NCBI RefSeq assembly: GCF_000092105.1
Contig: NC_014148.1
Coordinates: 2,640,001-2,672,000, forward strand
DNA from: Planctopirus limnophila DSM 3776
GTDB lineage: Bacteria > Planctomycetota > Planctomycetia > Planctomycetales > Planctomycetaceae
Length of the DNA: 32,000 nucleotides
Direction: 5' to 3'
The notes under the pieces are model-generated. The model was not told where the DNA came from. It saw only the letters and a program-made list of their open reading frames with translations, and made no database searches. The translations under genes and the position numbers were made by a program. Below, piece by piece: positions 2,765 through 15,056 of the stretch (positions within the stretch are counted from its first letter, which is position 1; each line of letters begins with the position of its first letter).

Positions 2765-5700
2765 TCAGGGAATTCGCACTTCAAAACCACCCTGGGCAGG
2801 TTTGGGCAAACGAGCCTGGTACTTCTTTGCCAGACGATGTTGTCGGGAATCAATCGGCACTGCAGATCCCCCGATCAGAACGCCATGAATCTGCGTCCCC
2901 TGCAGAAGAATTGAGCCATCAGCAATCACCAGATCGGCTCGCTTACCGGGCGTGATCGATCCGGTCAGCTCACCGACTCCCAGAATCTCGGCGGCAGAAA
3001 TCGTGATCGCTTTAATGGCCTCATTTTCCGGCAATCCGTAAGCCACGGATGTAGCCGCATGGAACGGTGTATTGCGACTATCTGGTGCCCCATCGGAACG
3101 AAACGCAATCTTGACTCCGGCTTCGTGCAAACGCCCGGCATTGGCGTAACAGGCATCAAATGGATCCCAGGAGTGAATGGGCCGCCGGATGACGCCACCC
3201 ACAATCACAGGAATCTTCCGGGCTGCGAGTTCGTCAGCCAGTTTCCAGGCATCTGCCCCACCGGTAATCACGGCCTGGAGCTTCTCTGCTTCGATAAACA
3301 GGAGTGCTTCCGCAATCTGTTTCTCTGTATTGGCTTCGATAAACACCTTCTTCTCGCCAGAGGCATAGGGGATCATCGCCTCCAGGCGCAGATCCCTTTG
3401 CGTCAGTAAAGATTCTGGTGATTTCGACATCGCTGCTGCATACGTTCGGGCAGCAGTAAACATCGCTTTCAATTCACGAATTGCTCCCTCATTTGAATCG
3501 CCACCTGGCCACTGGATCTGCAAACCCGCATCCCGAAGAAGTGTCATCTCAGCCGATGTCCAGCCCTGGAGAGCAATGATCGAGTTCTGCCCGCTGATGC
3601 GACCACCTTGGGGACTCAAACCCGCCAGAGTAATTCCGCCTGATCTTGCGGTGAAAATATGCTCAGAGTCAGGATTCACAGCCGCTGCTGCGGCGAGATC
3701 AGGTTGGAACTGACCAATCTCGGAGTAATCCGAAGTGACGGAAAGCTGGCTGATCTCTGTAATTCCGACAGTTGTGCTGGCATCGATCATCCCCGGGAAA
3801 ACTCGTCTTCCCTGGAGATCAATTCTCGTAATAGACGGTTCGGCCTCAAGCTTCTCACCCAGTGCGAGAATCTTTCCCTCTTTGATGTGAATCATTCCCT
3901 GCTTGATTTTCGCTTGATCGACGGGATGAATCTCACAATTGACCAGGAGATATTCGTTGCCCAGATTTTCAGGCCATTCCATCACTGGCAAACGCTTTTC
4001 CGCAGGAGGCCATTCTGGTGCCGGAATTTTTTCAGAGGCTTTGGCAGCTACCTCCGACATGACTGCCGGTTGCCTGGATCGATCGAAGTACCACTCGCCA
4101 CCAATGAACGTCTTCTCGCAACGGGAGAATCCACTCATGGGATGCGTGTTGAAGATCGCAACGTCGCCCAGTTTGCCGACTTCGATGGTCCCCACATGCT
4201 CATCGATTCCCAGCTCTCGAGCGGGATTTCTCGTCACAAACTGAAGTGCCACTTCCGGAGGCACATTTCCATGTCTAATAGATTTTGCGGCCTCATGGTT
4301 CAGAGCATTGGGAGTGACAGGGAAATCACTCTTGATCACCACACTGGCCCCCGCCTGCAGCAACATAGCCGCGTTGTAAGGGGTGGCATCATAAGCTTCC
4401 ACTTTGTAGGCCCAGTGATCAGCAAAGGTACTGGTGCTGGCCCCATGGGCTGCAATTTCCGGAGCAATCTTGAATCCCTCAAGGACATGCTGCAGGGATT
4501 GAATGCGAATTCCGTGGGAACTGGCAACCCGGAGCAGCATGAGGATTTCATCAGACCGGTAACAATGCGAGTGGATCAGGATCTCGCCAGCCAGAATCTT
4601 TGATAAGGCTTCCAGTCGCAGATCGCGCCTTGGTGGAAGAGTTTTGGCCTTTTCTTCTGCAGAGAGCCGATCATAAGCCATCCAGCGGGAGCGATAATCG
4701 AGCGATTCGACAAAAGCCCTGGTGATCGTAGCTTCGACTCCCAGCCGCGTATTCGGGAAACGCCCATTTTTGCGTTTCACATTTTCCCCCAAGGCAAACT
4801 TCACACCTTGGCGAGAGAAAGGGAAGAGATGATCGTGGGTGGATGCCCCGATCTTCATTTGAACGACCGCGTCCTGCCCGCCGATTGTATTCGCCGAACC
4901 ATGGAGCAGGCGGGCCGTGGTCAACCCTGTCGCCAGCCAGCGATACGAATCAGGATCTGTACCATCCACAATATCCCGCACACGGACTTCGCAGGTGATC
5001 GAGTTGGTGGCTTCATTCACTCCTCCCAGCCCGCGGCCCATCATCATATGGCTGTGCGTATCAATCTGGCCGGGAACGACGAATTGGCCCGTGGCATCAA
5101 TGACCGTCGTACCATCGGGAGCAGGAATGTCTGTTCCAATCGCCGTGATGCGACCCGCCTGAATCAACACCGCATGACCTGCGAGCGATTGCCCCGTCCC
5201 AGTCAGCACAGTACCGCCTTTGATCAGCACGTTTCCACCCGTTGACGGGGGACGTCTTTGACGATCGGCCTTCAGTTCCACGGGAGGCTTTTTGGCAACC
5301 GCCACTTTCTCTTGAGCATCTTTTTCGCTTTGGGCGGTCTCCAGATGCATCGGTTTCAAAGCATCTGCCGGTTTTTGTGGTTTCTCATTCTTCGAATCAC
5401 CCGATTCTTCGATCGTGGTGACTTCAATCGCCTGCAAAGCGGCACTCCCATCGATCTTTGTCGATTGAGGCTTTCGCTCGGCAGTGAAGTCAATCGCTGT
5501 TCCAAAGAGCGATTTCAATTTGCCTGTCATCGTGTTGCCACGAACAGTCCCTTTGAATTCCAAGGTCACATCCCGGTCACCAGCCCCAATCGAGACCACG
5601 AACTCGACCTCCTGGCCTTTGACCGTCCCTTGTTTAATCCGACCATCTCCCTGTTCACTGGAGAATCGACCCGTCAATCGATCACCCGTCTGCACAATCG

Positions 5701-7267
5701 ATAACGTGGCCATCAGTGAGTTTTCTGTGGCAGTACTCTTCACACGCCACTCACCACTCACCAGCCCTGCGTTGTTCGAATCACTGCCAGTAGCCTTGCC
5801 GTCGTCGGCTTTTCCGGACTCACTCAGTGGCTTGGCCTCGTGAGAAAACTCGAAGACCCGGCCTCCAATGACAACATATCGAACCACGCTTTTAGCGTTT
5901 GAGATTGGCCCATTGAGAATCGTAAAGTTGGCCAGCTTCCCCGGAGCAATCGAACCCAGTTGCTGTTCTTGACCAAGAATCTGCGCCGGTTCCGAAGTTA
6001 ACAGGGCAATTGCTTCTTCCTCTTTGAGCCCGCGCTCGATCATTTTCCGAATCACACCGAGAAACTTCTGTGGTTGGTCGCTGAATCTCCGGCTGGAGAG
6101 ACCCACTCTGATTCCACTGCGAAGAAGTGTTCCTGCCAGATCAAGTTCCTCCTGGTATTCAAGAAGTGAATTTTCCTGAACGTCTTTGGGAGGTTTTTTG
6201 CCTCGTCCCGCGAGACCTGCAGGCGACTCTTCGACTTTTGGTGCATCATCGGCATTGAGTGCGAGGATAACCGGCGTCTGTGTCGATTTGAGCAGTTCGA
6301 TCTGCTGACGGGCTTCTTTACCACCCCAGATGATGACTTTAAGGCCGTGCTCTTCACCCAGTCGAATCGCGCGCTCGATGTCGTTGGCCGTATCCGCAAT
6401 GATGACCGCCGGCCGCCCCGATTTCTTGAACTCGATCAGCGACTCCAAACCGGCATCTTTGGGTGGACGACTGAGCCCCGGGGTTCCGCTGGCAGCTAAT
6501 TTCAAATGCTGCTCGTGTCGCATGGCGTCGAGCCAGACCTGACGGAAAAGAGCCACTTGACCCATGACTGTGGATGGATAGACACCAAACGACTGCGGCG
6601 AGAATTCAAAGACCTGTCCTGCGCCAGTACCTAACCATTCTTCACGGGGTGGCTTATCGCCCAACTGGAGGAGCACACCCTGGCCACTACAGATTCTCCC
6701 CGAAGGCCAGATCGCGACTGTCGTAAAACCCGCTCCGCGTAGCTTCGAAGTACCGGCAAATTCTCGGGGTAGCCGGGACATAACATCGAAATCAGGAGTA
6801 AATCCGGTGCGAAGATCACTGGGGAGATGGGCGAGGGAAGTCTGTTCCAGCCCCATTTCCTGCATGGGCATGAGAGGTATATTCTGCTCCAGGCCACTGG
6901 GAAGGCCCGCGTTAATCCATCCCGGATAGATGTGCAAACCAGCGGCATTAAGGATCGATGTACCGGGAGGAATCACGCTGTTCTGACTGATATCCGTAAT
7001 CACACCATCCCGGGAGAGAATCAGCCGGCTCTTTTCAGTCTTAGCCGAAGCGTCGGCCATGACTTTTTCGTCCGGCGTATTGAGATGCCAGATGCCTCCT
7101 TCAATGGCTAGCTGCCGAAAGGGATGCGGCACCGCTTCCTGAGCCGTCAGCTGAGCAGTTCCTCCGGTGACGGTGAGGATTAAGCCAGTGAGCAATGCCC
7201 GCTGTAGAATTGCTGGTGCGCAGAAAACCCGGCGTTTAAAAACGATGGCGAGAATAGACAAACCCAA
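2765..7267 (-). CDS. Large secreted protein made of three fused amidohydrolase-superfamily modules
   Basis: 1500-aa ORF with an N-terminal hydrophobic signal or anchor. The middle module has the canonical PGQIDTHSH metal-binding HxH (nt 5048-5062) plus downstream HSHCYR and KSD motifs. The N- and C-terminal modules are mutually similar and have PGWINAG / PGMIDAST in place of HxH. The start (TTG at 7267) is uncertain. Confidence 0.8.
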   Translation of the reverse strand: MGLSILAIVFKRRVFCAPAILQRALLTGLILTVTGGTAQLTAQEAVPHPFRQLAIEGGIWHLNTPDEKVMADASAKTEKSRLILSRDGVITDISQNSVIPPGTSILNAAGLHIYPGWINAGLPSGLEQNIPLMPMQEMGLEQTSLAHLPSDLRTGFTPDFDVMSRLPREFAGTSKLRGAGFTTVAIWPSGRICSGQGVLLQLGDKPPREEWLGTGAGQVFEFSPQSFGVYPSTVMGQVALFRQVWLDAMRHEQHLKLAASGTPGLSRPPKDAGLESLIEFKKSGRPAVIIADTANDIERAIRLGEEHGLKVIIWGGKEARQQIELLKSTQTPVILALNADDAPKVEESPAGLAGRGKKPPKDVQENSLLEYQEELDLAGTLLRSGIRVGLSSRRFSDQPQKFLGVIRKMIERGLKEEEAIALLTSEPAQILGQEQQLGSIAPGKLANFTILNGPISNAKSVVRYVVIGGRVFEFSHEAKPLSESGKADDGKATGSDSNNAGLVSGEWRVKSTATENSLMATLSIVQTGDRLTGRFSSEQGDGRIKQGTVKGQEVEFVVSIGAGDRDVTLEFKGTVRGNTMTGKLKSLFGTAIDFTAERKPQSTKIDGSAALQAIEVTTIEESGDSKNEKPQKPADALKPMHLETAQSEKDAQEKVAVAKKPPVELKADRQRRPPSTGGNVLIKGGTVLTGTGQSLAGHAVLIQAGRITAIGTDIPAPDGTTVIDATGQFVVPGQIDTHSHMMMGRGLGGVNEATNSITCEVRVRDIVDGTDPDSYRWLATGLTTARLLHGSANTIGGQDAVVQMKIGASTHDHLFPFSRQGVKFALGENVKRKNGRFPNTRLGVEATITRAFVESLDYRSRWMAYDRLSAEEKAKTLPPRRDLRLEALSKILAGEILIHSHCYRSDEILMLLRVASSHGIRIQSLQHVLEGFKIAPEIAAHGASTSTFADHWAYKVEAYDATPYNAAMLLQAGASVVIKSDFPVTPNALNHEAAKSIRHGNVPPEVALQFVTRNPARELGIDEHVGTIEVGKLGDVAIFNTHPMSGFSRCEKTFIGGEWYFDRSRQPAVMSEVAAKASEKIPAPEWPPAEKRLPVMEWPENLGNEYLLVNCEIHPVDQAKIKQGMIHIKEGKILALGEKLEAEPSITRIDLQGRRVFPGMIDASTTVGITEISQLSVTSDYSEIGQFQPDLAAAAAVNPDSEHIFTARSGGITLAGLSPQGGRISGQNSIIALQGWTSAEMTLLRDAGLQIQWPGGDSNEGAIRELKAMFTAARTYAAAMSKSPESLLTQRDLRLEAMIPYASGEKKVFIEANTEKQIAEALLFIEAEKLQAVITGGADAWKLADELAARKIPVIVGGVIRRPIHSWDPFDACYANAGRLHEAGVKIAFRSDGAPDSRNTPFHAATSVAYGLPENEAIKAITISAAEILGVGELTGSITPGKRADLVIADGSILLQGTQIHGVLIGGSAVPIDSRQHRLAKKYQARLPKPAQGGFEVRIP

Positions 7268-8470: not shown

Positions 8471-10858
8471 ATGACTGAAAAACGCCCAGGGGCACGACGC
8501 CCAACGCGCCGCCGCTCAGACGATGTCGAGAACTCGACTGAGACACCCAAGCCTGTGATTGAAGAGGTTTTTGAGGAAGTCGCAGGGCTCCATCGCGAAT
8601 TTGATGGCGAGGAACCTCCCAAGCCAAAACGGACGCGGACTCCTCGGGCCACATCGACAGGCTCCCGCAGCGCTGGCGATTCTTCGACCAGCGAATCGGC
8701 TCCCCGTGCCGAACGACCTTCACGCCGCAAACCGGTACCGGTCGATATCGAACCAGCGCCCGTAGCCGGGAGTGCCATGTTCTACGATCCCGTCGATGAA
8801 TCTGACTTCACACCATCGACTCGATCCCGGAAGTCGCCCGACAATGCTGGTGCTGATGCATTCCCAGCGAGCGAAGAGCAACCGGCTGCAACACGGCGCC
8901 GACGTGCTCCCTCTCGAAGCCCTCGCGAAACATCAGCAGAATCCAGAACGGATGATGCCCCTAGAACGCAAGATACCCCCAGAGTTCAAAATACTCCCAG
9001 AGCCCAAGAAGACAGCGACTTCGGCTCTGGCCTGGATGACGTCGACTCGCCATCAAAATCGGCTGGTGCATCGAGATCTTCGCCCTCGAATGAAGGTGAA
9101 TTTCCGCCGAGAGATGAAGCCTCTTCCCGCACTCAGCGGCCACGCCGGTCGGCAGCGAGAACTGGTGGCGAAAGATCAAGTCGATACCAGAGTCGCGGAG
9201 ACGGACCTGCCGACGAACCAACTTCATTCGCACGTCGAGATCGATCAGAAGCCAGTGACAGATCGGAAGCCAGTGACTTTGAACCAGCACCGCGTTCTGG
9301 TGAGTCTTCTTCAGAGGCTTACAATCGCGCCGGTGGTGAAGATGAGGGGCCAAGGTCAGGCTCTCGCGATGAGAGCAATTCGGTTGAAAACTTTAATGAA
9401 TCAGGCTTTTCGGGCGAAAACCCGAACGATGGCACGCCCGCGCGTCGCCATGGTGGATTCAACGAAGGTGATGAGGGAGGCGACCCAAATGATGGAGGTC
9501 GCCGTCGTCGCCGCAGGCGCCGTCGTGGTCGCGGTGGCCCAGATGGTGGCCTGCAGGGCCCACAGGCACCCCGCGGACAGTTCGTTCCTCAGGGAAATAA
9601 TAATCCCCGCGGCCGGAACAACAACAATCGCTCACAAGGTGGTCACCAGCGAAATCAGGGAGGGAATCGTCCCTATGATCAATCGCGACGAGGTCCACAA
9701 AATCCTCAGGATCGCAATTACAACTCTGCTCCGCGCGGGCCGGAAGTGATTGAGCCCACCAGTGGCGTGCTCGAATTGCACCCCAAAGGCTATGGATTCC
9801 TGCGCGACCCGAAAGCCGGTTATGTCTCGCAGGAAACCGATCCGTTTGTGTCAGCCACCATCATTCAGAAGTTTGGTCTGCGTGAAGGTGTACTGATCCA
9901 GGGTGATATGGTTCAGGGCAGCCGGGGGCAGGGCCCGCGTCTGCGAACAACCGAGTATATCGATGGCCGTACACCCGAAGATTACGCACAAATCAAGGGG
10001 TTTGACGATCTCACACCAATCAATCCCTTTGAGCAGATCCGCCTTGAAACAGGGCCCACCCCGATCACTATGCGGATCATGGATCTGCTGACACCGATCG
10101 GTAAAGGTCAGCGAGCACTCATTGTGGCTCCGCCCCGCAGTGGTAAAACCATGCTGCTGCAGGAGATTGCCGATGCCGTCAGCAAGAATCATCCGGAGAT
10201 CTATCTGATTGTGCTGTTGATCGACGAACGTCCTGAAGAAGTGACAGAAATGCGTCGTCGCGTGCGCGGGGATGTCATTGCCTCCTCGATGGATCGTGAA
10301 GTCGAAAACCATGTTCGCGTCAGCCAGTTGATCTTTGAAAGGGCCAAAAGGCTCACCGAGGCAGGACGGGATGTCTTCATTCTGCTTGATTCGATTACCC
10401 GAACGGCCCGCGCTTTCAATAAATGGACAGGGAACACCGGTCGCACAATGTCCGGCGGTCTGGACATCAAGGCCATGGATATTCCCAAGAAGATGTTCGG
10501 CCAGGCCCGTCGTTTCGAAGAAGGGGGCTCACTCACTGTTGTCGGGACGGCACTTGTCGAAACCGGCAGCAAAATGGACGACGTGATCTTCCAGGAGTTC
10601 AAGGGGACTGGCAACATGGAAATGGTGCTCAGCCGAGACCTCGCAGATCGTCGCATCTGGCCTGCCATCGATGTTTCAAAATCGGGGACACGTCGCGAAG
10701 AAAAGATCCTCTCTCCCGAAGTGATGGAGGGGGTGACATTGCTCCGCCGCAGTCTGATTTCTTTGAGCCCCGTGGAAGCGATGGAGCAGATGGTTCGTAT
10801 TCTCACCAAATACAAAACCAACGAAGAGTTCCTCGCCAAGGTTCGTTCAATCCTCTAA
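8471..10858 (+). CDS. rho: Transcription termination factor Rho with a ~425-aa disordered N-terminal extension
   Basis: The C-terminal ~370 aa are collinear with E. coli Rho: GVLELHPKGYGFLR (CSD-like RNA-binding domain), GQRALIVAPPRSGKTMLLQEIA (Walker A), LLIDERPEEVTEM, LLDSITRTARAF and FKGTGNMEMVLSR. The N-terminal part is rich in R/S/D/E/P/G. Confidence 0.95.
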   Translation: MTEKRPGARRPTRRRSDDVENSTETPKPVIEEVFEEVAGLHREFDGEEPPKPKRTRTPRATSTGSRSAGDSSTSESAPRAERPSRRKPVPVDIEPAPVAGSAMFYDPVDESDFTPSTRSRKSPDNAGADAFPASEEQPAATRRRRAPSRSPRETSAESRTDDAPRTQDTPRVQNTPRAQEDSDFGSGLDDVDSPSKSAGASRSSPSNEGEFPPRDEASSRTQRPRRSAARTGGERSSRYQSRGDGPADEPTSFARRDRSEASDRSEASDFEPAPRSGESSSEAYNRAGGEDEGPRSGSRDESNSVENFNESGFSGENPNDGTPARRHGGFNEGDEGGDPNDGGRRRRRRRRRGRGGPDGGLQGPQAPRGQFVPQGNNNPRGRNNNNRSQGGHQRNQGGNRPYDQSRRGPQNPQDRNYNSAPRGPEVIEPTSGVLELHPKGYGFLRDPKAGYVSQETDPFVSATIIQKFGLREGVLIQGDMVQGSRGQGPRLRTTEYIDGRTPEDYAQIKGFDDLTPINPFEQIRLETGPTPITMRIMDLLTPIGKGQRALIVAPPRSGKTMLLQEIADAVSKNHPEIYLIVLLIDERPEEVTEMRRRVRGDVIASSMDREVENHVRVSQLIFERAKRLTEAGRDVFILLDSITRTARAFNKWTGNTGRTMSGGLDIKAMDIPKKMFGQARRFEEGGSLTVVGTALVETGSKMDDVIFQEFKGTGNMEMVLSRDLADRRIWPAIDVSKSGTRREEKILSPEVMEGVTLLRRSLISLSPVEAMEQMVRILTKYKTNEEFLAKVRSIL

Positions 10859-11852: not shown

Positions 11853-12620
11853 TTATTGGCCAGAATTCGGTGCTGGTGATGTCTGCGTAAGCACTGGCTG
11901 TTCGACGGCCGCGCCCTCAGTGCTTTTTGGCGATTCCGAATAGTCGCTCTGCTGTTGCTCAGTTTCTGCTGAGTGGTGCAGGGCATCCGCCAGTTGAGCC
12001 CTTTGAATTTGAATGGCTTCATCAAATTGATTGAGGACATCGATCGCTCGATCGCGCGATGTCACCAGTCCAATAATCAGGTACTGAATAATCGCCAGAC
12101 CATAACAGACCCAACCGACCCAGCCATCCTGAAAGACAGCCATAATGGCAAAGACAGGAGATGACCGGTTGAGGTGCTTGCACAACAAACCTCGAATCAA
12201 ATCCGGTAAGTAGCTCCAACACGCCTTGATACGTCCATGGGGTGGCATTTTGAAAGGAGGTGGCCCGGGATGAATAATCGCAAACAGCCCCTGATCAGGC
12301 ATGCCTTCAATCACACCTATCGCGAGCATTAATCGACCGGCCAGAATCATCCAGCCCTTTTCCTCGCGAAGATCAAGTGGCACCCAGCCAAAGAAGGCCT
12401 GCTCCATGTTGGCCGAGGCGACCAGCAGCAGAATTGCTCCACGGAACCAGAGTTCAAGATCTCGCTCAAGCTCTTGATCAAGCCCGTTCACTCGGACAAC
12501 ACGCTTCAAAAACCAGCGAAACAACGGGACTGCCATCAACCCGATGATCAGGCGCGTCACTGGTTTCAGTATCGGAGCCAGTAGTTGCGGCGGTATCAGT
12601 AATCGCAGCAACTCCAGCAT
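11853..12620 (-). CDS. Multi-pass membrane protein of unknown family; candidate retron effector
   Basis: 255-aa ORF with an ATG at 12620 preceded by AAGGAG (12630-12635, - strand) at a 9-nt spacing. About 4-5 hydrophobic segments are visible: LIIGLMAVPLFRWFL, GAILLLVASANMEQAFFGWV, GWMILAGRLMLAIGVI and VFAIMAVFQDGWVGWVCYGLAIIQYLIIGLV. The C-terminus is a polar tail. The gene lies 58 bp downstream of the RT stop on the same strand. Confidence 0.7.
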   Translation of the reverse strand: MLELLRLLIPPQLLAPILKPVTRLIIGLMAVPLFRWFLKRVVRVNGLDQELERDLELWFRGAILLLVASANMEQAFFGWVPLDLREEKGWMILAGRLMLAIGVIEGMPDQGLFAIIHPGPPPFKMPPHGRIKACWSYLPDLIRGLLCKHLNRSSPVFAIMAVFQDGWVGWVCYGLAIIQYLIIGLVTSRDRAIDVLNQFDEAIQIQRAQLADALHHSAETEQQQSDYSESPKSTEGAAVEQPVLTQTSPAPNSGQ

Positions 12621-12678: not shown

Positions 12679-14019
12679 TCATGAATTCCAGTGGATCTTC
12701 TCAAAAATCTTCTGCAAACGCACTCCCCGGTCAGGATTCAAATGCCGGATATGTGCCAACCTGCCCTGAAGATGAGCTCGAAAATCAACCTGTTGATCTC
12801 GATTCTGTGTCTGATGACCATGCCGAACGCAATTGTGCAAAATCGCCTTGAGTTGATCGTAGTCTCTTCGAGAGCAATTGGGACGCTGATTCACGACCAC
12901 ACCAGTGACTGTCTGCCGATTCGACTGCCGGAGAATCCTTCGCTTCGCGGGCTGAGAATGAAAACGGCACTGCACTATCACCTTATCAGTCAGCGGCACA
13001 AATCTTTTGAGCTGTTTCAAAAACCGATGATCACCCGAGAATGTGAGATCGTCCGCGTAACGGGTGTAAATCGCACCAAATCGACGGGCCAAACCCGTCA
13101 GACGTACATCCAGTGAATATGTCGCCAGATTCGCCAGAGCCGGAGAAGTGGGCGCGCCTTGGGGTAAATGACGCCGTGTGAACAGCATAATCGAATAGGG
13201 ATTCTTATCGGGAAATGCCATACCCATGGGCAATGCCGAGGTTGTCAATCGCGCCAGCCACAAAGCCATTTCGCGAGAGTACCCCAGGGAACGAAAGATC
13301 GCGACGACTTTTGAAAATGTGACCGACGGATAGAAATCTTTCAGATCAAACTTCACCACCACAGCTTTCCCGGCATGCAACTGGGCATTTGAGACGATGT
13401 CACAACCGGGGACAAAACCATGTGCCGCTGGATGTGCGGGAACCAGATCAAGAATTCGCCTGAGAATGATCTCCTGGACTCTTTTGAGTGCTGGTTTGGG
13501 TGCTTCAATGAGCCGGTGCCCCGAGCGCTTTTTGCGGATCCATTTCAGCCAGTAATGCGATTTTTTTTCGGTGGGAGGTCGGCCATGATCGGCGAGGTGA
13601 ATCAATCCGGCCAGCCGCTTGATCGGCAGCCCCAGAAACTGGCTTAATTCATCAAGAGTGGTGAGGACTGGCAACCGATGTTGCTGCAGCAAATCGACGC
13701 GCGTATCCGTTAGCAGATTCAGAAACTGCTCACGTCGGCGCGTACGGGCATATCTGGCATAAACGTACGGAAGCTGATCGACTTGAGTTCCACGCCCCTC
13801 GATGCGCCATTGTCGCACCATTTCGGGTGATCGATATCTGAGTCGTGGAAGTTTCGGAGTTGTTGTGGAACCGAGCCATTGCCGCTTCTGGCCACCCGCT
13901 TGATTCGAAGAAGGGCTGCCCGGCAACGTGTGGTTGGAACCTGTCGGTCGCCACCAACTCAAGAACCAACTCCACAAACCCATGAAGACATCCTTGACCT
14001 GGCAATGCATCGTCCGCAT
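12679..14019 (-). CDS. Retron-type reverse transcriptase
   Basis: Collinear with retron Ec86 RT as I recall it. LPVLTTLDELSQFLGLPIKRLAGLI aligns with Ec86 LPVMNNLHDMSKATRISVETLRLLI. HGFVPGCDIVSNAQLHAG contains NAxxH (nt 13375-13389). Further matches are FDLKDFYPSVT, IFRSLGYS, LPQGAPTSPALANL, YTRYADDLTFS (YADD, nt 13048-13059) and NRQTVTGVVVN (VTG, nt 12901-12909). The start is uncertain: ATG at 14019, or Met67 at 13821. Confidence 0.9.
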   Translation of the reverse strand: MRTMHCQVKDVFMGLWSWFLSWWRPTGSNHTLPGSPSSNQAGGQKRQWLGSTTTPKLPRLRYRSPEMVRQWRIEGRGTQVDQLPYVYARYARTRRREQFLNLLTDTRVDLLQQHRLPVLTTLDELSQFLGLPIKRLAGLIHLADHGRPPTEKKSHYWLKWIRKKRSGHRLIEAPKPALKRVQEIILRRILDLVPAHPAAHGFVPGCDIVSNAQLHAGKAVVVKFDLKDFYPSVTFSKVVAIFRSLGYSREMALWLARLTTSALPMGMAFPDKNPYSIMLFTRRHLPQGAPTSPALANLATYSLDVRLTGLARRFGAIYTRYADDLTFSGDHRFLKQLKRFVPLTDKVIVQCRFHSQPAKRRILRQSNRQTVTGVVVNQRPNCSRRDYDQLKAILHNCVRHGHQTQNRDQQVDFRAHLQGRLAHIRHLNPDRGVRLQKIFEKIHWNS

Positions 14020-14033
14020 TGAATTCCAAAAAA

Positions 14034-14052
14034 TCGACCGCCGGGTCGCACA
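14034..14052 (-). repeat. Retron a2 inverted repeat (3' end of the msd-coding region)
   Basis: Partner of a1 (see above). It ends 15 nt upstream of the RT ATG at 14019. Confidence 0.8.
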
Positions 14053-14067
14053 ACCAATGCCTGTTTC

Positions 14068-14105
14068 GAATCCTGTCTACGGTGGAACCACCGTAGACAG
14101 GATTC
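14068..14105 (-). repeat. Long perfect hairpin in the msd region
   Basis: GAATCCTGTCTACGGTGG (14068-14085) + AA + CCACCGTAGACAGGATTC (14088-14105). This is an 18-bp perfect palindrome, the size and position expected for the msDNA stem. Confidence 0.85.
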
Positions 14106-14183
14106 CAGTTCAGTATGGGAGCAATCATTCGAGCACGGGGTAACCCCGCACCGGCCAGGCTTTTCAGCGATATGGCCTCTTCT

Positions 14184-14202
14184 TGTGCGACCCGGCGGCC
14201 GA
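14184..14202 (-). repeat. Retron a1 inverted repeat (5' end of msr)
   Basis: The + strand TGTGCGACCCGGCGG (14184-14198) is the exact reverse complement of CCGCCGGGTCGCACA (14038-14052). Pairing extends to 19 bp (to 14202 / 14034) with one G-U wobble. Confidence 0.8.
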
Positions 14203-14209
14203 CGACTGG

Positions 14210-14238
14210 AGTTTACACGGATTTCCACGACTCACCAA
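14210..14238 (-). promoter_or_regulatory. Putative sigma-70-like promoter of the retron transcript
   Basis: On the - strand: TTGGTG (14233-14238), 17 nt, then TAAACT (14210-14215). This places a start about 7 nt downstream, right at the extended a1 repeat (about 14202). The -35 match is weak and the consensus for this phylum is uncertain. Confidence 0.25.
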
Positions 14239-14384: not shown

Positions 14385-15056
14385 ATGTTTTCTGCAGGTC
14401 CAACTCCGCTGGATGTCACCTTTGTACTTTTTGGCATTCCCGTTCGAGTGAACCCGATGTTCTGGCTGATGGCCGCTGCCCTGGGTTGGGGATCAGGTGA
14501 CCTGCCACTGGTGCTGATCTGGGTGTGGTGTGTCTTTTTCTCAGTACTCATTCATGAACTGGGACACGCTCTGACAGCCGAGTGGTTTGGCTGGCGAAGT
14601 TCAATCCTGCTCTATTTTGGGGGAGGGCTGGCTTTCTCAGATCGGTACGTCAATAACACGCCGGGGCGGTCTGTGATCATGTCGTTCATGGGCCCGATGG
14701 CTCAATTCCTGCTCTTGGGAATCGTGCTGATCGTTTTATTGGCCTTGCGGGCCTTTCAAGTCGAGATTCCGCCTTACGCAGCGACGGCGTTTAATTATCT
14801 GATCATCATCAATATCTTCTGGCCGATCTTGAATCTGCTCCCGATTCTGCCACTCGATGGAGGCCGCATCCTGCAGGGCCTGCTCGATATGTTCCGTATC
14901 CGGCGGCGCAGTGATATCACCCGCGGGATCAGCGTCGTTCTCGCAGCGGCTGTTGCCGTCTGGTGCTTCACTGAAAACATGCCTTTCGGCACGATCATGT
15001 TCGGTTTGATTGCCTGGCAGAACGCGAGTGGAGCGTTTGATTCTCGCGCCTATTGA
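14385..15056 (+). CDS. Site-2 protease family (peptidase M50) integral membrane metalloprotease
   Basis: Shows the HExxH motif VLIHELGHALTAEWFGW, the second M50 signature NLLPILPLDGGRIL, and multiple hydrophobic segments. I chose the ATG at 14385 (MFSAGPTPLDV) over the track start at 14328. Confidence 0.8.
   Translation: MFSAGPTPLDVTFVLFGIPVRVNPMFWLMAAALGWGSGDLPLVLIWVWCVFFSVLIHELGHALTAEWFGWRSSILLYFGGGLAFSDRYVNNTPGRSVIMSFMGPMAQFLLLGIVLIVLLALRAFQVEIPPYAATAFNYLIIINIFWPILNLLPILPLDGGRILQGLLDMFRIRRRSDITRGISVVLAAAVAVWCFTENMPFGTIMFGLIAWQNASGAFDSRAY

Follow-up and report, generated by a model that had tools for sequence, protein, structure and literature searches.

Does the chromosome of Planctopirus limnophila DSM 3776 carry an intact retron among its housekeeping genes and, if it does, is this retron built like the tripartite defence systems in which a reverse transcriptase (RT), together with a non-coding RNA (ncRNA), is joined by an effector? 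The question is raised by positions 12679-14238 of a stretch of 32,000 nucleotides (nt) of contig NC_014148.1 (2,640,001-2,672,000), the whole of which is called the window here and gives the numbering of all coordinates that carry no locus handle. A first-pass annotation of this DNA had proposed a retron, made of an msr/msd ncRNA and a retron-type RT, sitting among housekeeping genes, and this proposal was borne out by profile, structure, covariation and neighbour analyses, for which a scan of a genome collection supplied 80 RT loci (handles of loci, metagenome ones included, begin with L, those of proteins with P). Every feature of the retron family that can be tested in silico was found in the RT and its ncRNA. 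The locus is likely to be a real, intact stand-alone (msr-msd)-RT retron, without a dedicated effector gene in cis, placed in the core chromosome and inherited vertically.

The RT gene (12679..13983, minus strand) codes for 434 amino acids (aa) and was recognised by Pfam, PADLOC, PDB sequence and Foldseek searches. The mechanical open reading frame (ORF) extends to 14019 (12679..14019, minus strand, 446 aa) and carries the RT core as had been claimed (FDLKDFYPS, LPQGAPTSPALANL and YTRYADDLTFS); it probably begins 12 codons too early, the true start being Met13 with its ATG at 13983. This start is preferred because Met13 is invariant in an alignment of the RT with 19 homologues (alignment A1), in none of which anything upstream of it is conserved, and because the 96% identical RT of Planctopirus ephydatiae is itself 434 aa long; an AAGGA stands 7 nt 5' of the ATG. 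Retron RTs are defined by an NAxxH motif in region X, between RT2 and RT3, and by a VTG motif in region Y, within RT7 (Mestre et al.). Recomputed coordinates of both signatures agree exactly with those first given: NAQLH occupies 13375..13389, with N, A and H invariant in alignment A1, and VTG occupies 12901..12909, with V and G invariant and T replaced by A in a few homologues, while the catalytic YADD (13048..13059), also on the minus strand, is invariant in the same alignment. The RT is full-length, its catalytic motifs do not vary in over 100 homologues (47-60% identity), and it ends about 70 aa past VTG, as in Ec86, with no C-terminal effector fusion.

Both profile and structure searches place the RT among retron RTs, apart from the other prokaryotic RT classes. 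Pfam returned RVT_1 alone (3e-21). The comparison with other RT classes and with PADLOC that had been recommended at the outset put retron models in the lead: the 25 best PADLOC matches were all retron RT models, headed by RT_other (4.3e-124), RT_outgroup (2e-117) and RT_XIII (3.7e-103), and the first NCBIfam models were those of retrons St85, TIR and Ec67 (about 1e-54 to 1e-56, below their curated cut-offs), with the group II intron RT model TIGR04416 at 1.1e-10 (41 bits against a cut-off of 300) and Drt2 and Drt3a no better than 1e-10. The 14 sequence matches in PDB were retron RTs without exception, Ec86 being the best, and residues 101-385 aligned to Ec86 14-270 in one collinear stretch (E = 6.6e-31), in keeping with the collinearity noted in the first reading. 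The AlphaFold2 model (mean predicted local distance difference test, pLDDT, 79; residues 1-75 disordered except for one short helix) retrieved retron RTs as its 18 top Foldseek chains, with E = 5e-22 and a TM score of 0.80 on Ec86, and the first non-retron match, a group II intron RT at 1e-10, was 11 orders of magnitude weaker. The epithet "Ec86-like" consequently holds for solved structures, among which Ec86 is the best match, but not for profiles, where RT_other, RT_outgroup and RT_XIII lie far ahead of the II-A models, the type of Ec86 (1.6e-65). The N-terminus of planctomycete RTs (residues 1 to about 80 of the 434 aa; 13747-13983, minus strand) holds a conserved hydrophobic helix, MGLxxxLxRLF, and then a linker of about 60 aa that is basic and disordered (pLDDT < 50), in place of which relatives in other phyla have a different conserved helical domain of about 110 aa (LAxAFLAGxW...).

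On the same strand, 5' of the RT gene, lies the msr-msd ncRNA gene, delimited by fold, covariation and covariance model as 171 nt from a1 through a2 (14033..14203); the features first described there, a segment of about 170 nt with a1/a2 repeats, short hairpins and one long perfect hairpin, were all recovered. The 21-nt a1 arm (GTCGGCCGCCGGGTCGCACAA, 14183..14203) pairs with the 21-nt a2 arm (TTGTGCGACCCGGCGGTCGAT, 14033..14053) at 21 of 21 positions, two of them G-U, and the end of a2 is followed, after 49 nt, by the start codon of the RT. Just 3' of a1 stands an unpaired guanosine, G14182 (G32 of the ncRNA alignment A2), which is invariant in 16/16 ncRNAs and is the candidate branching residue, the canonical retron layout suggesting that it would prime reverse transcription. 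Opposite to it, just 5' of a2, G14054 (G160 of A2) is likewise invariant (16/16) and is the predicted first templated base; in canonical retron RNAs they have their counterpart in the "two opposing G residues". Between them follow msr stem-loop 1 (14153..14177), variable in sequence with 4/4 consensus pairs covarying (helix 2), and msr stem-loop 2 (14132..14152), whose core GCGGGG-UUA-CCCCGC is invariant in the planctomycete set and which is probably the hairpin recognised by the RT. An A/U-rich linker (14106..14131) leads to the msd hairpin and is the predicted zone of termination, the retron census giving as a rule that reverse transcription ends before an AT-rich stretch. The msd hairpin itself (14068..14105) can be read from the sequence as two perfect 18-base-pair (bp) arms with a TT centre, and 7/7 of its aligned pairs covary. 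A retron ncRNA is expected to lie next to the RT on its strand, with terminal a1/a2 repeats, 1-3 msr hairpins and one long msd stem-loop, and this layout is seen here. The segment folds with a minimum free energy of -110.7 kcal/mol; 200 shuffles gave -74.0 +/- 4.6 (z = -8), and none of them was as good.

Other signals in and around this segment were also considered. The description of the segment as ORF-free needs a qualification, as three mechanical ORFs overlap it (13730..14128 and 13959..14228 on the minus strand, 13928..14143 on the plus strand), for none of which any support as a gene was found. An Rfam search of the window gave nothing at gathering threshold and no intron match; a mir-624 match at 14069-14104 (plus strand, 22.9 bits against a gathering threshold of 100) was rejected as an artefact of the msd palindrome. 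A scan for sigma-70-like promoters upstream of a1 found none, a scan of this kind being uninformative for planctomycetes. Six T after the a1/a2 stem (14028-14033, minus strand) resemble an intrinsic terminator and could attenuate RT expression; T runs also stand 3' of a2 in L003, L006, L007, L012 and L013 and are absent in the 93% identical metagenome relative L082. With the T run lost in L082 and variable elsewhere, the a1/a2 stem and T6 were dropped as an intrinsic terminator. Several relatives have long perfect inverted repeats with arms of 21-34 nt just 5' of the retron ncRNA (L012 5499-5571, L015 5398-5509, L011 5399-5487, L001 3284-3390, L010 5048-5111), absent in the window, which could be terminators of the preceding genes or repeat elements.

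The first-pass annotation had counted the lack of a conserved a1/a2 structure upstream of homologous RTs, if joined with a lack of msDNA, among what would refute it; an inverted-repeat search found such a structure, with a span of 170-184 nt and at the same place 5' of the RT, in 16 of the 18 Planctomycetes loci with upstream sequence. Conservation is seen in the inner part of the repeat (GGGTCGCACAA/TTGTGCGACCC), covariation in the outer. In alignment A2, made of these 16 planctomycete loci, the RNAalifold consensus has four helices with 38 pairs in total; compensatory changes on both sides are seen in 23 of the pairs (10 of 19 for a1/a2). Paired cells amount to 93.8%, compared with 38-46% once the partners are slid by 1-3 columns, and 0 of 500 column shuffles reached the observed pairing values. 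The distance from stem-loop 2 to a2 is constant (79-83 nt in 16/16 loci), and the msd hairpin keeps its size and place in relatives with sequences that are unrelated between loci.

A covariance model built from the same 16 ncRNAs (R1) scored the window with 128.7 bits on the minus strand, that of the RT, versus 25.9 on the plus strand, and the frequent G-U pairs of the ncRNA fit the RT strand only. Loci outside the training set were recovered with 87-149 bits (L031, L014, L009 and L015), as were 17 metagenome loci (90-157 bits), Caulifigura coniformis (L162, 121 bits) and P. ephydatiae (L163, 126 bits). Weaker matches, placed alike relative to the RT, occur in most of about 60 non-planctomycete RT loci, from Acidobacteria, Proteobacteria, Verrucomicrobia and others, more than 50 of them with E <= 0.01; in all, R1 finds the ncRNA beside the RT in more than 90 other loci of several phyla. 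An independent alignment of 23 wider-clade matches returned CAAG after a1, the GGGGUUACCCC hairpin, a long msd hairpin and GUUGG at a2. Stem-loop 2 is kept as GGGGUUACCCC in the acidobacterial, proteobacterial and verrucomicrobial relatives, and the counterparts of G14182 and G14054 are both kept in the wider clade. In more distant relatives the msr hairpin GGGG-UUA-CCCC alone is recognisable (L073 5562-5580, from Pyxidicoccus caerfyrddinensis; L021, L023, L042, L071); the myxobacterial RT of L073 is 42% identical, and type XIII partner genes were not found near it.

The ncRNA accompanies the RT into unrelated contexts and was never detected by R1 in loci that hold the downstream membrane protein gene described below without an RT. 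Between the window and L082 the a1-to-a2 segment is 100% identical despite a synonymous divergence (dS) of 0.31 in the RT, for which the ratio of non-synonymous to synonymous change (omega) is 0.10. RT and ncRNA are both under purifying selection and strictly coupled.

The effector part of the tripartite framework, in contrast to the rest of the proposal, was not borne out: no known effector occurs in the window or beside relatives. The window codes for 25 further proteins, which are products of core genes, including anthranilate-synthase-type enzymes, Rho, an M50 protease, ClpB, DnaK, TIM, SecG, YicC and guanylate kinase (Gmk), and none of them matched retron accessory or effector models. Likewise, neither ARM_XIII, WHSWIM_XIII nor any other recurrent defence match was found in 74 downstream proteins of the wider RT clade, which belong to assorted, unrelated metabolic genes; the next gene is often convergent there and no neighbour cluster is held in common. 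PADLOC matched none of 10 neighbours of planctomycete relatives, the neighbours being MutL, AroD/E, an M16 peptidase, a PP-loop ATPase (TilS-like), GATase and a GGDEF protein, and the Caulifigura cassette sits between an RNase J-like gene and trpA. No recurrent accessory module is thus seen in the wider clade, and the same applies to the Planctomycetaceae subclade with the reservation that one gene stands beside about half of its cassettes. Neither an effector gene nor an RT fusion of the kind expected of a tripartite retron defence system was found.

The gene concerned by this reservation (11853..12620, minus strand) begins 58 nt past the RT stop on the same strand and codes for a helical membrane protein of 255 aa, named TM255 here, which is a candidate partner only. 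On the other side the cassette is bordered by a divergent M50 metalloprotease gene (14385..15056, plus strand; Pfam Peptidase_M50, 1.6e-17), a piece of context and not a component; the same divergent arrangement with the RT was seen in 7 genome loci. A tripartite retron with TM255 as effector would work by analogy with type IV (Ec48): the complex of RT and multicopy single-stranded DNA (msDNA) would hold TM255 inactive until phage interference frees it, with membrane damage and abortive infection as the outcome. Starting from TM255, 45 metagenome loci had 1.5 kb or more of upstream sequence; in 21 of them, scattered over the whole TM255 tree, an RT was found directly 5' on the same strand; starting from the RT, TM255 was found downstream in 8 of 19 Planctomycetes loci. 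The adjacency is kept in L013 despite a changed upstream neighbour, the pairwise identities of RT and TM255 correlate over 31 loci (r = 0.76, Spearman 0.46, Mantel 0/2000), and, speculatively, the hydrophobic N-terminal helix of the RT might reach the membrane.

Other observations speak against TM255 as the effector. RT-plus and RT-minus loci are interleaved throughout the TM255 tree, and TM255 lacks RT and ncRNA in about half of the loci, including four empty sites in which M50 abuts TM255 directly (L093, L104, L142 and L145) and Schlesneria paludicola, where no RT lies near TM255; this is not how a toxin standing by itself would be expected to persist. Conversely, the RT-ncRNA cassette occurs without TM255 in other contexts (L003, L011, L012, L014-L017 and Caulifigura L162), so that the linkage is facultative. 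TM255 looks more like a conserved housekeeping protein, with many invariant polar motifs, an omega of 0.08 and a narrow, highly conserved family (1,208 clusters at 90% identity); a profile search of 1.84 billion representatives retrieved 139 proteins and no informative remote relative. It has no match in Pfam, PADLOC or NCBIfam and no resemblance to known effectors, and its AlphaFold2 model (pLDDT 78, all-helical, at least 5 long helices) gave no Foldseek PDB match with E < 1. The sole apparent RT-TM255 fusion (P0294) was rejected as a low-quality sequence with frameshifts at both junctions, and the long N-terminus of P0246 as a low-complexity over-extension. Finally, the pairwise identities of RT, TM255 and M50 all correlate at r of about 0.9 over 13 loci; as the RT is followed by M50 no less closely than by TM255, synteny explains the RT-TM255 linkage. 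A functional link between RT and TM255 is therefore possible and not required, and TM255 as a retron effector appears rather unlikely. On a separate note, five TM255 homologues (P0176, P0212, P0229, P0231 and P0236) bear the name "DNA topoisomerase I" in public records without domain or fold support, which looks like a propagated misannotation.

Since RT, TM255 and M50 co-diverge, composition is native (GC and GC3, the GC content of third codon positions, of the RT equal those of the flanking genes) and omega is about 0.1, inheritance is taken to be vertical. Gene order in P. ephydatiae is identical (DnaK-ClpB-x-M50-[ncRNA]-RT-TM255-x-Rho). All this is most simply read as the history of a 1.7-kb cassette that was inserted long ago between M50 and TM255, a conserved divergent pair, and then descended vertically, being lost or relocated repeatedly. 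That M50 and TM255 stay a conserved divergent pair with no retron between them suggests that the two membrane proteins are functionally linked. In planctomycetes the cassette is inherited as an ordinary chromosomal gene and not as defence-island cargo. Two other genes of the window deserve mention in their own right: the Rho gene (8471-10858, plus strand) has a low-complexity charged N-terminal insertion of about 400 aa before its RNA-binding and ATPase domains, and a protein of 1,500 aa (2765-7267, minus strand) is unusually large for the amidohydrolase family, its P. ephydatiae counterpart having repeated amidohydrolase domains.

Assignment to type XIII, the retrons of myxobacterial Mx162-like kind, with ARM/HEAT and WH-SWIM partners encoded outside the window, was considered as well. 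A survey of 2026 typed 26 Planctomycetota retron RTs as XIII by nearest hidden Markov model (HMM), and RT_XIII is indeed a strong profile for the present RT, which also has an N-terminal extension and belongs to a vertically inherited cassette, vertical inheritance being a mark of this type. However, RT_other and RT_outgroup score better than RT_XIII, and 56% of the survey's own calls in Planctomycetota are of low confidence. In type XIII a linked WH-SWIM gene (cluster 114), usually with a HEAT/ARM gene, lies directly up- or downstream of the RT, whereas ARM_XIII and WHSWIM_XIII were absent from the 25 proteins of the window, from the 74 wider-clade neighbours, the myxobacterial one included, and from the 10 planctomycete neighbours. 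Membership in type XIII is consequently very unlikely.

The repeated loss of the cassette from the M50-TM255 site and the want of an effector could also suggest that an old retron insertion is decaying here and no longer functions. This reading is highly improbable and is contradicted by the full-length ORF with its invariant catalytic motifs, by the low omega of the RT and the perfect conservation of the ncRNA at the synonymous divergence given above, by compensatory changes that maintain every helix, and by a median pairwise identity that is higher for the RT (60%) than for TM255 (53%). An RT of another class (group II intron, diversity-generating retroelement or Abi/UG-DRT), with the hairpins as a terminator or as the 5' leader of M50, is effectively refuted, the weak TIGR04416, Drt2 and Drt3a matches lying far below cut-offs and 40-110 orders of magnitude behind the retron models, 18 retron RTs ranking first by structure, the RNA signal belonging to the RT strand and staying with the RT where M50 is not a neighbour, and the T run after the a1/a2 stem being lost even in L082.

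Several points nevertheless weigh against a functional stand-alone retron. Production of msDNA is an expectation from anatomy alone, and RT-DNA was detectable for 62 of 98 retrons tested in the retron census, about one third giving none. The branching G is preceded by CAA, compared with the common TTA of the census. The term "stand-alone" is an argument from absence, as the window covers 32 kb and an effector elsewhere in the genome is possible. In about half of the planctomycete loci, across 43-60% TM255 identity, the gene directly 3' of the RT and in the same orientation is TM255; Mestre et al. regard an association that persists below 60% RT identity as the sign of a functional partner, and by this standard TM255 would count as a candidate. 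The correlation of RT and TM255 distances is due in part to a few close pairs, as its Spearman coefficient indicates. Lastly, it is by profiles, structure and ncRNA that the RT has been assigned to its class.

For the stand-alone retron, a course of events can be proposed. The ncRNA and the RT gene, on one strand, would presumably be co-transcribed from the gap of about 180 nt that separates them from the divergent M50 gene, and the transcript would fold by means of its 21-bp a1/a2 stem. The RT would dock on the invariant msr hairpin, the 2'-OH of the unpaired G14182 would prime cDNA synthesis, and copying would start opposite G14054, run leftwards through the 18-bp msd hairpin and stop in the A/U-rich linker. 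The outcome would be branched msDNA, some 55-75 nt long and with a hairpin of about 38 nt. Every sequence element needed for this mechanism is present and under selection; the anatomy of RT and ncRNA predicts that msDNA would be produced, and it is by analogy with characterised retrons that the site of priming, the ends of the template and the making of msDNA are proposed, the biological role being likewise a proposal. The favoured view is that the RT-msDNA particle itself would be the conserved functional unit, its output passing through a partner in trans or through host factors, and the canonical arrangement with a toxin encoded in cis is not favoured.

Mestre et al. proposed that retrons with vertical inheritance may have been recruited by domestication to functions other than defence. 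A tentative extension of the stand-alone reading, to which only a low probability is given, is that an anciently domesticated retron plays a cellular, non-defence role in Planctomycetaceae, with RT-msDNA acting together with the M50 intramembrane protease and the lineage-specific TM255, the membrane proteins encoded on either side of it; one possibility is a nucleic-acid-based sensor that would feed a membrane proteolysis or stress pathway. Vertical inheritance, an RT more conserved than its neighbours and never seen in a defence island, the conserved hydrophobic N-terminal helix of the RT and the recurrent return to, or stay at, the M50/TM255 site are compatible with such domestication.

For the role of retrons without a toxin partner the planctomycete lineage offers a clean test case: RT and ncRNA are under strong purifying selection, the site in the core genome is fixed, natural presence/absence variants exist between the same flanking genes, and hosts such as Planctopirus and Caulifigura can be cultivated. 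The compact ncRNA family, with its constant msd segment of 79-83 nt, also adds to the retrons that could be tried for DNA production. For the specialist, four points may be of interest: vertical inheritance that goes deep at a core site, an RT N-terminus peculiar to the lineage, an msd of constant geometry and the series of presence and absence between M50 and TM255. The lineage had been put forward as one without a characterised retron. This stands insofar as the literature yielded no experimentally characterised planctomycete retron and no planctomycete entry was found in the main text of the retron census, but retrons as such are not new there, given that IMG labels some of the RT homologues "retron-type reverse transcriptase", that a PADLOC profile already fits the RT at 1e-124 and that the 2026 survey and the stand-alone cassettes of 2020 already exist.

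Among known systems, Retron-Eco6 (Ec48, type IV, with a two-transmembrane-segment effector) resembles the present locus in having a membrane protein gene directly 3' of the RT on the same strand. TM255, on the other hand, resembles neither the type IV effector nor any PADLOC model, is larger and multi-helical, and is widely present without a retron. Retron-Eco1 (Ec86, type II-A3) is the best solved-structure match (29% identity) and shares the motifs and the logic of the ncRNA, with a1/a2, a G after a1, msr hairpins and one long msd hairpin. It differs by its nucleoside deoxyribosyltransferase-like effector with a DNA-binding domain, not found in the window, by an RT that is about 110 aa shorter at the N-terminus, by II-A models that score 60 orders of magnitude worse than RT_other, and by context, the planctomycete cassette occupying a core chromosomal site and not a mobile island. 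With Mx162 and Mx65 (type XIII, RT clade 10) the cassette has in common vertical inheritance, an N-terminal RT extension and RT_XIII as third-best profile; the WH-SWIM and HEAT/ARM partner genes were not found in the window or among the 74 and 10 neighbours, and the msDNA predicted here is much shorter than those of type XIII, Mx65 excepted. The msDNA of Mx162 measures 162 nt. The signs of a group II intron, whose RT/maturase lies within a ribozyme of domains I-VI and has X/maturase and often En domains, are not found either, as seen from the TIGR04416 score and the Rfam search of the window. Membership in types XIII, II-A and IV thus fails because their defining partner genes are absent.

The closest likeness is to the stand-alone (msr-msd)-RT cassettes described by Mestre et al. 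in 2020 as a branch of RT clade 2 together with clade 11, which are also made up of a retron RT and a canonical ncRNA, and in which neither an accessory gene recurs nor an effector domain is fused. The best profile, RT_other, agrees with this placement on our own reading of what the PADLOC labels RT_other and RT_outgroup mean, and the wider family of Acidobacteria, Proteobacteria, Verrucomicrobia and Planctomycetes has a single ncRNA architecture and lies amid unrelated housekeeping genes. What sets the Planctomycetaceae subclade apart is its RT N-terminus, formed by the MGLxxxLxRLF helix and its basic disordered linker, and its preference for the M50/TM255 chromosomal site, with which it co-diverges. 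Taken together, a group of retrons without a toxin partner is already recognised, and the Planctomycetaceae cassette adds a member to it and no new kind of system.

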